From the NCBI GenBank assembly GCA_030390025.1, contig CM059438.1, forward strand, positions 9,796,001 to 9,860,000: a stretch of DNA of 64,000 bases, read 5' to 3'. Source of the DNA: Squalus acanthias. Lineage: Eukaryota. The notes below the pieces were generated by a model, which was not told the DNA's origin, ran no database searches, and worked only from the letters and a program-made list of their open reading frames with translations. This document shows, one piece after another, positions 31,201 through 56,446 of this stretch; position 1 is the first letter of the stretch, and every line of letters starts with the position of its first letter. The translations under genes and the position numbers were made by a program.

Positions 31201-31343
31201 CCAGTTTGTCTTCCCTCCCTACTGACTCTATTCTTAGGTTCCCATCCCCCTGCCAAGCTAGTTTAAACCCTCCCCAACAGCACTAGCAAACCCTCCCGCG
31301 AGGATATTGGTCCCGTTCCCATTGAAGTGCAACCCGCCTGGCT
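28257..31343 (-). mobile_element. CR1 LINE: end of ORF1 plus the whole, disrupted ORF2 (EN-RT)
   Basis: YFNARRIANK, GVYYRPP and a 328-aa RT segment (DFSKAFDKV, QGSVLGP, FADDTK). ORF1 ends LHFNGNGTNILAGGFASAVGEGLN*. Tail atagaatcatagaa. Confidence 0.96.
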
Positions 31344-49580: not shown

Positions 49581-52079
49581 ATTTTTAAAAAATAGGAGCA
49601 GGAATAGGCCTTCAAGACTGTGAAGGGCTGAATGTCCTACTTTGGAGGACATTATAGTTGACATAGTTGAGCCTGTTCTTGTGTGTAATGCAGGGACGTG
49701 CACTTATCATCGGATGATGGTCAACAGTGGAAACCATGGCCATATCTTGTTTTGCTTTTTTTCTTCCTAGCTCCAGAAATTTGAGGCCATTTGTTCCTCT
49801 GCCACTAGGTGCTATCAGTGGACACAGTACCAACCAGGGATTAAAACTGACGTCTTCATCTGCATGGCTTGGTGCCACATCATGCTGTGCATCGACCCAG
49901 TGAGCCATTGGTTGAGCCATGGGCGTTTCATTGTTTCCTTTGGAAGTGATTTTATCTGACCACAGGTTTAAAATTGACTAGTGGACTTAATTCCCTTGTT
50001 TGTGTTACTCCCTGGCGGGGCAGGACCCATGAGGAAAAGTAGCTCTTGTTATTTCTTGGACACATATGGAGAAAGTGTTCCTCAAAGCCATCTATTCAGC
50101 TTCCTGGAGTAGTAATGTCTTCACTTAATAACTCACCAGGCAGCACACTGTTTCATTAAAAAAAAATGCTGTTGATTTTCCCCTTTTGGGATTCTGGCTA
50201 TACCAGAAGGGGCCACAGACCAGAACTAGAGTATGTAGTAACATTCATTTAAAGTAGATTTTTTTTTTGGGGTGGGAGGGGTGCAATGGATCCAATAGGA
50301 ATAAGAATGTTTAAGGATAAGGGCAAATATGTTTAAGACATGTAAGGAACATTAAAAGGAAGTTTTCAATATTCCATATACTCAGCAAAAGTACTCAACT
50401 TGACAGCACAAACATTTGAGCGGAAAGTGGGCAAGAGATCGATGGAACTAATGTGAGGTAGAATACTTTGCAAGAGTAGACCTGTTAAATAGAGTGGAAT
50501 AGCAGAATTTTAGGAAGGGCAGTTAGAGGGAGAGGTGGCAAAAGCCATGTGGATGGGAATTCTTAATGAAAGGGATAACTATGGGCTGGATTTTCACATT
50601 GGAGGCGGGTTGGGTGCGGGGCAGGTGGCCGGCGGGTCCCGAACCCGCCCCCGTTGTCAGGTCAGAAAAAACTGAGATTTTACCCTAATTGGCCAATTAA
50701 TTCCAGGCGTGTGGGTTCCCCTGTGCCAATTAGTGTTTTGGGACTGAAACTCACCTCTGCTGCTGCCACTTATCTAGCTGGATTGAAGGCCTCCAAGCTG
50801 GCTTGTTCCCTATGCGCCTGTTTTGCTGATACTGTGGAAGCCTGGGGATCCTGCCTTCATCGGTGATGTCAAGATTCACTGATGACTCCCTCCAAGTGTT
50901 GGTAGAGGGAGTCACAGCTAACAGGAGGTGCTCTTCCCTTCTTCTGGGAGGAAGAAGACTCCTCAGCAGACAAAAGCTGTATGGCTTCAGATCGCGAGGG
51001 AAATGAGCAGCAAGTCGGTCTGCAGCAGAACCTGGCTGCAGTGCCGTAAAAGGTTCAATGACTTTGTTCGAACAGGAAAAGTGAGTAGAGCATCACCTTT
51101 ACCCTCATTCTGCTCCCCATCTCCTCTCCGCACCAGCACTCTGCATTGTCAACCTACTCCTACACATCCCACTGTACCCTTACATGCCTTGCACCCCTAA
51201 CCATCCCTCTCTATGTTCACAAGCACTTCACTATTCGACTATGCTGCCCTCACACTCCCTATCACAGTTATGCACTGACAACAACTACCAACACCAGTGG
51301 TATCTGCACCTCGCTCCATCCCTGTCTCCTTCTAAACATCTGCTCTGGAATCTCTACACTCACTCCATCATCTCAGTCAAACTCCACTTGTCTCCCTGCT
51401 GGAAAAGAGCCCACAATAAGCGGGAAAGGACGAGGACAGGAGGTGGGCCACCCTCAATAGCCTCCTCAAATGCTGAGGAGGCGGCCCTGGAAATCGTTGG
51501 TGCTAGCCTGGATGTGGAAGTGGGGGGCGGACAGACGGGCACAGAGGAGCAAGCTGGTGACCGAATAGTTTTGAGAGATCTCATTTACATTGCATGAGTG
51601 ACTGAAATGGCTGCTGATGTTCATACTGATTGATGATTATCTGCACAACTCCATGTGAGTGCTACATTAATATCAGTTGTCTAACTCATGCCTTTACTCC
51701 ATCACAGGGCCATCGACATTCCCCCCTCGCCAGTGTCCCGGAGGAAGAAGGCGACCATGAAGACTCCTCAGAGGAACCTGCAACCTCTGAGGGCGCAGCG
51801 TCAGCAGATGTAAGCGCACCCAGCACTAGCGCAGATACACACACCTCAGTGGGACCCTCGCGACATAGAGTAGTGTTGTCACCTGGTGTATCACCGCTCA
51901 CAAGTGAGCATCAGCAGATGGTGGAGACGGGGCCAGTAGCGGAGGGTCCTCGTCAGAGGTCACAGGACTCCTAGCTCTGCTCAGCTGCATGTGGACCCTG
52001 TGCCTCCAAGTCCATACGAAAGGAGAGTGGTGCTGGAACTCCAGGAACAGGTGCAGGAGTCTCTGGCAGGTTTTGTCTC

Positions 52080-52643
52080 ATGACTGGCACCATGACTGGC
52101 TCTGTTGCAAAGAAGGGAGGGAAAAAGAGTGGCAGGGCTATAGTAATAGGGGATTCGATTGTAAGGGGAATAGATAGGGGTTTCTGTGGTCGCGACCGAG
52201 ACTCCAGGATGGTATGTTGCCTCCCTGGTGCAAGGGTCAAGGATGTCTCGGCGCGGGTGCAGAACATTCTGGAGGGGGAGGGGGAACAGCCAGTTGTCGT
52301 GATACATGTTGGTACCAACGACGTAGCTAAAAAAAGGGAAGAGGTCCTACAAGTAGAATTTAGGGAGTTAGGAGCCAAGCTAAAAAGTAGGACCTCGAAG
52401 GTAGTAATCTCTGGATTACTACCAGTGCCACGTGCTAGTAAGAGTACAGAGAACAGGATAGTTAGGCTAAATACGTGGCTTGAGCAGTGGTGTAAGAGGG
52501 AGGGTTTTAAATTTTTGAGGCATTGGAACCAGTTTTGTGGTAGGTGTGACCTATACAAAAGGGACGGTCTACACCTGTGCAAAGATGGAACTGATGTTCT
52601 CGGGGTAATTTTTGATAAAGCAGTTCGGGAGCATTTAAACTAG
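52080..52643 (+). CDS. CR1 ORF1 C-terminal part, SGNH/GDSL esterase-like domain
   Basis: Motifs IGDSIVRG, LPGA, HVGTND and DGLHL. Confidence 0.9.
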   Translation: MTGTMTGSVAKKGGKKSGRAIVIGDSIVRGIDRGFCGRDRDSRMVCCLPGARVKDVSARVQNILEGEGEQPVVVIHVGTNDVAKKREEVLQVEFRELGAKLKSRTSKVVISGLLPVPRASKSTENRIVRLNTWLEQWCKREGFKFLRHWNQFCGRCDLYKRDGLHLCKDGTDVLGVIFDKAVREHLN

Positions 52644-55585
52644 TATGGCAGGGGGCTAGAAACCTATGTAGTGAAATAGAGGAAAGTGAAAGGCAGACAG
52701 AAATAAATGGTAAAAGGGTGAGGAACAAAAAACAAAGGGCCAAACTAATTCATAAAAAATGTGAGCATAAAAAAAGCCTGAGGGTTTTATACCTTAATGC
52801 GAGAAGCATCAGGAACAAGGTAGATGAATTAGCTGTGGAAATAGAGGTTAATAATTATGATCTAATTGGGATTACGGAAACATGGTTGCAGGGTGAGCAG
52901 GGCTGGGAGCTTAACATGCAGGGGTATTCAGTATTTAGGAAGGATCGACAAAAAAGAAAGGGAGGAGGGGTAGCATTGCTGGTAAAAGAAGGGATAAATG
53001 CAATTGAAAGGAAGGATATTAACTCAGTTAATACAGAATCTATATGGGTGGAGCTAAGAAATAGCGAGGGGCGAAAAACATTAATAGGAGTGGTATATAG
53101 GCCTCCAAATAGTAAAATAGAGGTTGGGGAGGGCATCACGAGGGAAATAAGAGAAGCGTGCAATAAGAGCACAGCTGTCATCATAGGTGACTTTAACTTA
53201 CATATAGATTGGAATAGCCTAATCAGTAAAAATAATGAGGAGGAGGAATTCCTTGAGTGTTTAAGGGATGGTTATCTGGATCAATATGTCGAGGAACCAA
53301 CTCGGGAACAGGCTATATTGGACTGGGTACTGTGCAATGAGAAGGGACTAATTAGTAATCTTGTTGTACGGGGACCCTTGGGTCAGAGCGATCATAACAT
53401 GATCGATTTCTCACTCGAAATGGAGAGCGAAGAAATTGACTCAGATACTAAGGTCCTGAATTTAAACAAGGGGAATTATGATGCCATTAGACGGGAACTG
53501 AGTAGGTCTGATTGGACAACGTTCCTGGGAGGACTGGAGGTAGATAAACAATGGCAAGCATTTAAAGATAGAATGACAAAATTGCAAAAATTGTTTATAC
53601 CAATCTGGCATAAAAGGAAATCTAAAAAGGTGACTCAACCGTGGATAACAGGGGAAATTAGAGACAGCATAAAATCCAAAGATAGGGCGTATAAAATAGC
53701 CAAAAAAAGCGCCAGAGCGGAAGATTGGGAACAGTTTAAGATGGAGCAAAGGAGGACAAAGGGCTTAATCAAGAGGGGCAAAATAGCTTACGAAAGCAAG
53801 CTGGCGGAAAATATAAAAACTAACTCCAAAAGCTTTTATAAGTATATCAAGAGGAAAAGACTGGTGAAAACCAAAGTTGGCCCATTGCAGTCAGATACGG
53901 GGGAATATATAATGGGAAATAAGGAAATGGCAGACCAACTAAATGCATACTTTGGGTCAGTCTTTACGAAGGAAGACACAAAAAACCTCCCTGGGATATC
54001 GGGAAAAATAGGGACATTTGCAAAGGAGGAACTGACGCAAATCAATATCTCTAAGGATATGGTGTTAAGGAAGCTAAAGGGATTGAAGGCGGACAAATCC
54101 CCAGGGCCTGATAACATGCATCCTAGGGTGCTGAAGGAGGTGGCCCTAGAGATAGCGGATGCACTAAGTATGATTTTTCAGAATTCATTAGACTCGGGAA
54201 CAGTGCCCATGGATTGGAGGGTAGCTAACGTTACCCCACTATTCAAAAAGGGGGGTAGGGAAAAAGCAGGTAATTACAGACCTGTAAGCCTTACATCAGT
54301 TGTGGGCAAAATGCTGGAGTCCATCATTAAGGATGAAATAGCGGAGCACTTAGCAAATGGGGACAGGATAGAACAGAGTCAACATGGATTTACAAAGGGT
54401 AAATCGTGCTTGACTAATCTATTGGAATTTTTTGAGGGAGTAACTGGTAAAATAGATGGGGGAGAGCCAGTAGATGTGGTGTACCTGGACTTCCAAAAGG
54501 CCTTCGATAAGGTCCCACATAAAAGATTAGCAGGGAAAATTGAAGCTCATGGGATAAAGGGGAAAGTATTGACGTGGATAGAGAACTGGCTGTCAGATAG
54601 AAAACAGAGAGTTGGAATAAACGGCTCATTTTCTGAATGGCAGGCAGTAACAAGTGGGGTACCACAGGGATCTGTCCTGGGTCCCCAGCTGTTCACAATT
54701 TACATTAATGACCTGGATCAGGGAGTCGGATGCAGCATTTCCAAATTTGCAGACGACACTAAACTAGGAGGGGGGGTGGGCTCAGAGGAGGAGACCAGGA
54801 AGCTCCAGAGCGATTTGGACAGACTGGGTGATTGGGCGGATAAATGGCAGATGCACTATAATGTGGACAAGTGCGAAGTTATCCACCTTGGGTGCAGGAA
54901 CGGGAGGGCAAATTATTATTTAAATGGCAATAAATTGGGAGAGGGGGAAGTACAGAGAGACCTGGGTGTTCTTGTACACCAGTCACTGAAGGCGAGCATG
55001 CAGGTGCAACAGGCGGTCAAGAAGGCAAACGGTATGCTGGCCTTCATAGCAAAAGGGTTGGAATACAGGAACAGGGATACCTTGCTGCAGCTGTACAGGG
55101 CACTGGTGAGACCACACCTCGAGTACTGTGTACAGTTTTGGTCGCCTCATCTGAGGAAAGATGTTCTTGCCATGGAGGGGGTGCAGCGGCGATTCACCAG
55201 GCTGATACCAGGAATGGCGGGATTGACCTATGAGGAGAGACTATGTAGTTTAGGGATGTACACACTGGAGTTTAGAAGATTGAGAGGGGACCTCATAGAA
55301 GTGTATAAAATTCTGACAGGTCTAGACAGACTAGATGCAGAAGGAATGTTTCCCTTGGCGGGTGAGAACAGAACTAGAGGACATAATTTAAGGATAAGGG
55401 CTAAAACATTTAGGACAGAAATGAGGGGGAATTTCTTCACTCAGAGGGTGGTGAACCTGTGGAACTCATTGCCACAGAGGGCAGTGTACGCCAGCTCATT
55501 AAATATATTTAAGAGGGAATTAGATATATTTCTACAGGCAAAAGGGGTTAAGGGTTACGGAGAGAAGGCGGGGATGGGATACTGA
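52634..55585 (+). CDS. CR1 ORF2: APE endonuclease + reverse transcriptase, intact frame
   Basis: [47 protein letters not shown] and FADDTK. The frame is open from 52619 with no stop to 55585. Confidence 0.95.
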   Translation, partial: FKLVWQGARNLCSEIEESERQTEINGKRVRNKKQRAKLIHKKCEHKKSLRVLYLNARSIRNKVDELAVEIEVNNYDLIGITETWLQGEQGWELNMQGYSVFRKDRQKRKGGGVALLVKEGINAIERKDINSVNTESIWVELRNSEGRKTLIGVVYRPPNSKIEVGEGITREIREACNKSTAVIIGDFNLHIDWNSLISKNNEEEEFLECLRDGYLDQYVEEPTREQAILDWVLCNEKGLISNLVVRGPLGQSDHNMIDFSLEMESEEIDSDTKVLNLNKGNYDAIRRELSRSDWTTFLGGLEVDKQWQAFKDRMTKLQKLFIPIWHKRKSKKVTQPWITGEIRDSIKSKDRAYKIAKKSARAEDWEQFKMEQRRTKGLIKRGKIAYESKLAENIKTNSKSFYKYIKRKRLVKTKVGPLQSDTGEYIMGNKEMADQLNAYFGSVFTKEDTKNLPGISGKIGTFAKEELTQINISKDMVLRKLKGLKADKSPGPDNMHPRVLKEVALEIADALSMIFQNSLDSGTVPMDWRVANVTPLFKKGGREKAGNYRPVSLTSVVGKMLESIIKDEIAEHLANGDRIEQSQHGFTKGKSCLTNLLEFFEGVTGKIDGGEPVDVVYLDFQKAFDKVPHKRLAGKIEAHGIKGKVLTWIENWLSDRKQRVGINGSFSEWQAVTSGVPQGSVLGPQLFTIYINDLDQGVGCSISKFADDTKLGGGVGSEEETRKLQSDLDRLGDWADKWQMHYNVDKCEVIHLGCRNGRANYYLNGNKLGEGEVQRDLGVLVHQSLKASMQVQQAVKKANGMLAFIAKGLEYRNRDTLLQLYRALVRPHLEYCVQFWSPHLRKDVLAMEGVQRRFTRLIPGMAGLTYEERLCSLGMYTLEFRRLRGDLIEVYKILTGLDRLDAEGMFPLAGENRTRGHNLRIRAKTFRTEMRGNFFTQRVVNLWNSLPQRAVYASSLNIFKRELDIFLQAKGVKGYGEKAGMGY

Positions 55586-56446
55586 ATTGGAGGATCAGCC
55601 ATGATCTCATTAAATGGCGGAGCAGGCTCGAAGGGCCGGATGGCCTACTCCTGCTCCTATCTTCTATGTATCTATGTATCTATGTATCTATGTCTCCAGG
55701 GTCACTGCATGTGTGGAGAGGATGGAGGAGTCCAACTCAAATATGAGCAGAGCCTTTGTGGAGTCATTGGCGCATGAACACATCACCATGGAAAGGATGG
55801 CTACGGCCATCGAGGAGCTAAGTCGCCAGAGTGTTGAAAACATGGTCATTGTTCAGAATAGACTGACATCTCTGGAGGAGCGATGGACAGCTATTGAGCA
55901 GAGAAACCAGAGATTCATGGAAGTCCTCTGGAGTAGGACTGCCACTGCAGATACGGGTCCTCATGGCCCCCCTGATGTGCAGCAAGGTGATGTCCAGCCA
56001 CTTGCTAGCACTGAAGTGGGGCTGACCCATGAGAGGGATGTTGGTGGCAGCCAACAAGGAAGTGGGGGCTCCTCTCCAAGCGCGCTCACTCCCATGCCAC
56101 TGAGTAGCCCTTGGTCAGAGTCCTCACCCATCTGTGATGGGCGTCTCAGCCCCTGCACAGATGCAGGAGGAGCAGATGTTTGCTGAGCTGTCACAGGCTC
56201 GCAACCCCAGAGGACGCCCGCCAAAGGTGTCCAAGCAGGAGCAGCATGAAAGTGAGCAAGGTGCCTCCACATCTGCTGAAGCTACAGGGGAACCAACACG
56301 TAGGAGCACACGTAAGAGGGAGATTAAGCTCAAGTAGTCACAAGGGTAGTCACTTGGGTGTTCTGTTCTGTTCAATTATTAGATGCCATCATTTCCTTAT
56401 TTTAATAAACTGCACTGATGGCAAACTGCTGCAGTTGTGGTCTTGG

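Follow-up and report, generated by a model that had tools for sequence, protein, structure and literature searches.

Examining a 64,000-nucleotide (nt) stretch of Squalus acanthias DNA (the window), we found that the region 52080-55585 holds a CR1 retrotransposon whose two open reading frames (ORFs) meet at a slippery heptamer, U_UUA_AAC, where a programmed -1 ribosomal frameshift probably yields a single fusion of ORF1 with the endonuclease (EN) and reverse transcriptase (RT) of ORF2. Judged by sequence comparison, this junction signal is real and strongly conserved, and the heptamer is common to CR1 families as distant as those of sharks, frogs and crocodilians. A -1 frameshift joining the two ORFs had been proposed in an earlier, sequence-only reading of this DNA, and the proposal is now supported by conserved codons at the junction, by the junction of a second copy in the window, and by a -1 frame that lacks a start yet stays open.

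The heptamer lies at 52634-52640 (plus strand) in the X XXY YYZ phase of ORF1, its phase and conservation predicting a -1 shift site, and it directly abuts the ORF1 stop TAG (52641-52643, plus strand), for which other families carry TAA or TGA. ORF2 (52619-55585, plus strand) encodes an APE endonuclease and reverse transcriptase and runs intact for 988 codons without a stop, closed upstream by a -1-frame TAA (52616-52618, plus strand) that restricts the overlap between the ORFs to 25 nt. This phasing, this open frame and a first in-frame ATG inside the endonuclease domain, past the NARS and ETWL motifs, had all been named by the sequence-only reading and were found as it described them. The ATG is codon 100 of ORF2 (52916); the NARS Asn (52796) and ETWL Glu (52877) both lie upstream of it and align, in a profile of 25 ORF2 sequences, with N14 and E43 of human L1 ORF2p, which we take to be active-site residues (a PDB search with the endonuclease as a single sequence gave no matches; the profile did align to L1). 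Because the equivalents of N14 and E43 precede this first ATG, ORF2 cannot begin there. The five codons between the -1-frame TAA and TTT include neither AUG nor a near-cognate start, the first in-frame GTG is at 52718, and the linker of 51 codons between junction and endonuclease (52643-52795, plus strand) is open in the -1 frame only, the three frames holding 0, 5 and 8 stops (P = 0.014, 5000 dinucleotide shuffles). An ATG at 52645 opens a 4-codon, out-of-frame mini-ORF (52645-52659, plus strand) that is likely incidental, and we rejected it as the ORF2 start on account of its wrong frame and its absence from the second copy. U_UUA_AAC occurs again in phase at 53461-53467 (plus strand), within ORF2 just past the endonuclease domain. 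As the heptamer itself is common, with 13 and 17 copies on the two strands of the window, its significance rests on position and conservation.

The second CR1 copy, decayed and divergent (28-52% amino-acid identity across ORF2 segments), carries the heptamer and a TAG at its own ORF1/ORF2 junction (31258-31267, minus strand). Its -1 frame, too, is closed by a stop six codons ahead of TTT, the interval containing neither AUG nor a near-cognate start, and no ATG follows the junction stop. Its linker is also open in the -1 frame only, with 0, 6 and 3 stops (P = 0.019, 5000 dinucleotide shuffles), a value not independent of the 0.014 above, as the two linkers are related.

We evaluated codon conservation in the library of about 1000 consensus sequences supplied with PMC13343379 (Table S2), examining the first 400 letters of each; the junction is visible in 5'-short consensuses only, and the unseen remainder bears on every library count given here. 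Among 23 matches to the heptamer followed by a stop, 18 were judged by eye to be ORF1 ends of the CR1 group, from sharks, rays, chimaera, coelacanth, bowfin, halosaur, frog, crocodilians and lizard, and their stops varied (11 TAG, 6 TAA, 1 TGA); the other five comprised two in 5' untranslated regions (UTRs) of shark CR1 and three in L2 or Rex1 rows. Six synonymous Leu-Asn-TAG variants gave 14 matches, none of them an ORF1 end (variants before TAA or TGA were incompletely searched), and the same held for all 15 library matches to a heptamer with a changed first base. The sequence-only reading had pointed to free use of synonymous Leu-Asn codons at the junction as evidence that would tell against it, and in the library consensuses CR1 families do not use them. 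Searching with upstream esterase anchors, picked after the heptamer-plus-stop rows had been viewed, returned 17 matches, of which nine were true anchors; the junction was visible in eight and the heptamer present in all eight. One more heptamer junction, in ScyCan_CR1-13, was seen among the matches listed and was kept out of the counts, its stop being unclear. In this element Leu is written TTA in 18% of cases and Asn AAC in 42%, so that the invariant codons suggest the RNA sequence itself to be under selection. A G-rich stretch follows the heptamer and stop in the 5' UTRs of SquAca_CR1-3 and SquAca_CR1-18.

Among proteins, we examined 131 of 240 esterase homologs, leaving out the distant near-duplicates P0012-P0120. 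The C-terminal region could be aligned in 110 of the 131, and 83 stop within four residues of the ORF1 end, 65 of these with a Leu-Asn C-terminus (sharks, rays, turtles, lizards, a frog and an eel) and the exceptions belonging mostly to one cyprinid-type group. The residue preceding Leu-Asn takes nine identities, and in none of the 65 is it E, Q, K, M or W, the residues without a U-ending codon, which occupy the position one earlier in 28 of the 65. Screening 126 new representatives with a profile built from Leu-Asn sequences, and hence biased, left 79 with a recognisable last esterase motif: 35 with Leu-Asn at the usual distance, two with it at another, and 42 without a Leu-Asn end. Three database proteins (P0001, P0002 and P0371) cross the junction as F-K-L, which is the -1 frame, and are probably decayed copies whose frames were joined by an indel. 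Three frog predictions (P0250, P0251 and P0295) were rejected as natural fusions, as they skip the junction and resemble gene-caller joins.

Under the frameshift reading, most ribosomes would halt at UAG and release ORF1p, while in a minority the Leu-tRNA at UUA and the Asn-tRNA at AAC would move to pair with UUU and AAA, and reading would continue as ...R-E-H-L-N-L-V-W-Q-G-A... for 981 added codons. The frequency of shifting would then set the ratio of ORF1p to ORF2p, as in Gag/Gag-Pol. A G-run 11 nt downstream may act as a protein-binding site, and slow termination at the adjacent stop would possibly help the shift.

The stimulator is the weakest step of this proposed mechanism. Folding of the 3' flank, with a program that does not directly predict pseudoknots, gave no local structure better than shuffles in either copy (z +0.66, -0.55, +0.24 and +0.58), the first two values bearing out the earlier remark that no convincing pseudoknot lies downstream. 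With no 3' structure 5-9 nt downstream, we do not class the junction as a structure-stimulated frameshift. What both window copies share is five Gs at +11 to +15 past the heptamer, in this copy within a G-rich motif at 52647-52655 (plus strand) that is a candidate stimulator; across the library, a run of four or more Gs is present in 14 of the 18 junctions and begins at +10 or +11 in nine (by eye). By analogy, our best guess is that this G-run may be a protein-binding stimulator. In the virus behind porcine reproductive and respiratory syndrome (PRRSV), nsp1beta and PCBP work with a protein-binding motif located 11 nt past the shift site (PMC5009743). The likeness, an unstructured short motif at the same 11-nt offset, is positional only, and the systems differ in that the PRRSV motif is C-rich, directs a -2/-1 shift, belongs to a virus and has known binding proteins, whereas the CR1 motif is G-rich. 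A stricter version, in which a G-run protein and not RNA structure triggers the shift and esterase-type CR1 elements of jawed vertebrates make RT only as an ORF1-ORF2 fusion, is one we regard as tentative and rather doubtful.

Other candidate structures were tried and set aside. Long-distance pairing with the 3' tail, of the plant-virus type, was rejected for this copy and is unremarkable for the second: the tail came 3rd among 294 and within the first 10 among 304 with 70-nt windows that cut the tail's own stem, this rank was lost with a folded tail and G-matched controls, and with a 60-nt tail the binding was -1.7 kcal/mol for this copy, outdone by 652 of 698 control queries, and -10.7 kcal/mol for the second, outdone by 123 of 598. 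An 11-bp, G-U-rich hairpin at 52594-52634 (plus strand; region z -2.67) terminates exactly at the heptamer, and coronaviruses carry an attenuator hairpin at the position just before their slippery site; we rejected it as a conserved feature, the second copy folding in a shifted register.

Several observations weigh against frameshifting, beside the order in which the esterase anchors were chosen. Neither a 3' stem-loop nor a pseudoknot is predicted 5-9 nt downstream; an Rfam search gave no real match, only two at chance level; and the G-run is missing from four of the 18 junctions and could reflect Gly codons. The heptamer is also found in the 5' UTRs of SquAca_CR1-3 and SquAca_CR1-18 and in phase inside ORF2 at 53461. 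On the protein side, families share ancestry, the 65 Leu-Asn proteins reducing to 16 clusters at 60%; Glu precedes Leu-Asn in one of the 35 further proteins; and a clean single-ORF esterase-EN-RT element was not found among the homologs. Finally, UAAUG, with its AUG in the ORF2 frame, follows the heptamer directly in three of the 18 library junctions, all shark (ScyCan_CR1-1a, SquAca_CR1-17a and SquAca_CR1-6c), and UAGUG occurs in one, arrangements that would suit stop-start reinitiation.

Such termination-reinitiation, in which ribosomes terminate at the end of ORF1 and then resume translation in the -1 frame, at the junction or close to it, to make free ORF2p, is the rival that most needs weighing, and we consider it unlikely. 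Restarting would use the overlapping UAAUG where available, as in SART1, or proceed without an AUG, as in L1, the conserved bases then being a termination/reinitiation signal. It is the accepted route for L1 (PMC11485995, PMC5009743) and SART1 (PMC10275272), accounts for the open linker and requires no stimulator, but an in-frame AUG is lacking at 15 of the 18 library junctions and at those of both window copies (GTA stands there in this copy and GCT in the second), and the codon concerned, which specifies Met, Val, Ile or Ala, is consistent with an amino-acid preference. AUGs near the junctions are moreover spread over three different frames, and reinitiation does not predict the exact X XXY YYZ, including the third-position U of an otherwise variable codon. 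In the three shark families with UAAUG, frameshifting and stop-start reinitiation could coexist.

Two further explanations appear very improbable. ORF2 might start independently further along the linker (GTG at 52718 or CTG at 52778) or from a shorter transcript, with Leu-Asn kept for esterase structure. Several near-cognate codons do lie upstream of NARS, and predicted ORF2 homologs start at varied Met-like linker positions, N-termini that are uninformative because gene callers impose a start; however, a downstream start explains neither the fixed codon choice nor the lack of stops between the heptamer and these near-cognate positions, and more distant esterases can lack the Leu-Asn end (the 42 of 79 above). 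Held equally improbable is joining at the RNA level, by splicing to CTAG or by a polymerase slipping on the runs of U/A or G, or else a DNA- or RNA-binding motif unrelated to translation. CTAG is similar to a 3' splice site, and the motif does occur in the two SquAca 5' UTRs, but TAA or TGA in seven of the 18 junctions removes the AG. Two RNA runs placed 922 and 1477 reads on 52450-52850 (junction depth about 87 and 105), and among the variants listed at a 3% threshold no joints or indels appear over the junction, in reads that may derive from introns and not from genuine transcripts of the element. The sole variant among those listed between 52583 and 52709 is TAG to TAA, in a partial listing that does not prove the heptamer invariant; coverage of the stretch by DNA runs X21 and X22 is minimal.

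Scanning other DNA for more junctions, we recovered 35 metagenome loci at 21-41% identity, with an endonuclease downstream in only one (L019). At 1249-1378 of that locus lies a distant esterase and endonuclease element that lacks the heptamer; its ORF2 follows the stop by 54 nt, shares the frame and has an early Met. Viral scans for junctions gave two distant loci and then none, and a scan of prokaryote genomes found none.

By its homologs in sharks, rays and reptiles and its likeness to the library CR1 junctions, the element is a CR1, of the cartilaginous-fish type, its best named homologs coming from rays and sharks. What remains of ORF1 (52080-52643, plus strand) is an SGNH/GDSL esterase (PF13472, E 1.8e-11) with the C-terminus His-Leu-Asn-stop, and the traits of esterase-type vertebrate CR1, an ORF1 esterase, an APE and RT ORF2, and a 3' stem-loop and short-tandem-repeat tail without poly(A), are all present. 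The tail occupies 55586-55690 (plus strand; stem-loop, then short tandem repeats; fold z -2.62), and flanks and homolog alignment indicate 5' truncation near 52080. A candidate 6-bp target-site duplication (left 52074-52079, right 55691-55696, plus strand) is a short match that could have arisen by chance. Lacking a promoter and the ORF1 start, the truncated copy probably makes no ORF1, and the proposed mechanism therefore concerns full-length family members; its intact ORF2 suggests a young CR1 family.

The insertion splits a Myb/SANT-like gene (50922-51200 and 55692-56340, plus strand; PF13873, E 1.6e-05), the downstream part of which resumes past the CR1 tail; this host sequence is presumably a Harbinger-type element. 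More than 10 further CR1-like fragments lie at places across 2364-61879, with two tail types and a common central GGCC hairpin. Two shark-type CR1 proteins, P0126 and P0247, are filed under Pseudomonas aeruginosa and Carnobacterium maltaromaticum on 3-4 kb contigs, and these bacterial-named records are likely host contamination.

Placed among known systems, the element shares its esterase ORF1, APE and RT ORF2 and stem-loop/short-repeat tail with the esterase-ORF1 CR1 described as type IVB, subgroup 7 (PMC4120745) and as canonical CR1 (PMC13343379); the word 'frameshift' is absent from the main text of both papers, and a recoding signal is undescribed there. The principle of -1 frameshifting is not new for non-long-terminal-repeat (non-LTR) elements: Dictyostelium TRE5-A and TRE3-A, whose ORF2 is said to need a -1 frameshift (figure legend of the review PMC5911963), are likewise APE-type elements, and differ in belonging to the L1 clade, in living in amoebae and in carrying another ORF1. 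For CR1, no published frameshift proposal was found in a search that included parts of PMC3905857 and PMC10275272 and did not extend to the 1990s chicken and turtle CR1 papers or Repbase notes, which may contain one, and 'CR1' is not mentioned in the examined part of PMC5009743. In mammals U_UUA_AAC ranks with the heptamers most prone to shifting, and it is the heptamer of coronavirus ORF1a/1b in infectious bronchitis virus (PMC5009743). Coronavirus ORF1a/1b and retroviral Gag-Pol further resemble the CR1 junction in a short overlap and a polymerase made as a trans-frame product, and differ in using a 3' structure 5-9 nt downstream (PMC5009743), whereas none is predicted here. With L1 and SART1 the element shares a bicistronic RNA of the long interspersed nuclear element (LINE) kind, UAAUG being the SART1 arrangement; ORF2 of L1 is made without an AUG, perhaps via reinitiation (PMC11485995, PMC5009743). 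The differences are that the L1 ORFs do not overlap and that this CR1 copy lacks an in-frame AUG where its ORFs meet.

Elements of the CR1 group dominate among the retrotransposons of most vertebrates (PMC13343379), and LINE ORF2 translation is still described as incompletely understood (PMC11485995). If frameshifting is true, CR1 ORF2p is mis-annotated, and the protein would begin at the ORF1 start and include the esterase; the junction would also count as a natural -1 site found very widely among animal genomes and having no obvious RNA structure. Were the more doubtful fusion-only reading with a G-run protein also true, CR1 would follow a Gag-Pol-like, possibly self-regulating non-LTR strategy, in which the RT would be tethered to a lipid-binding esterase multimer.

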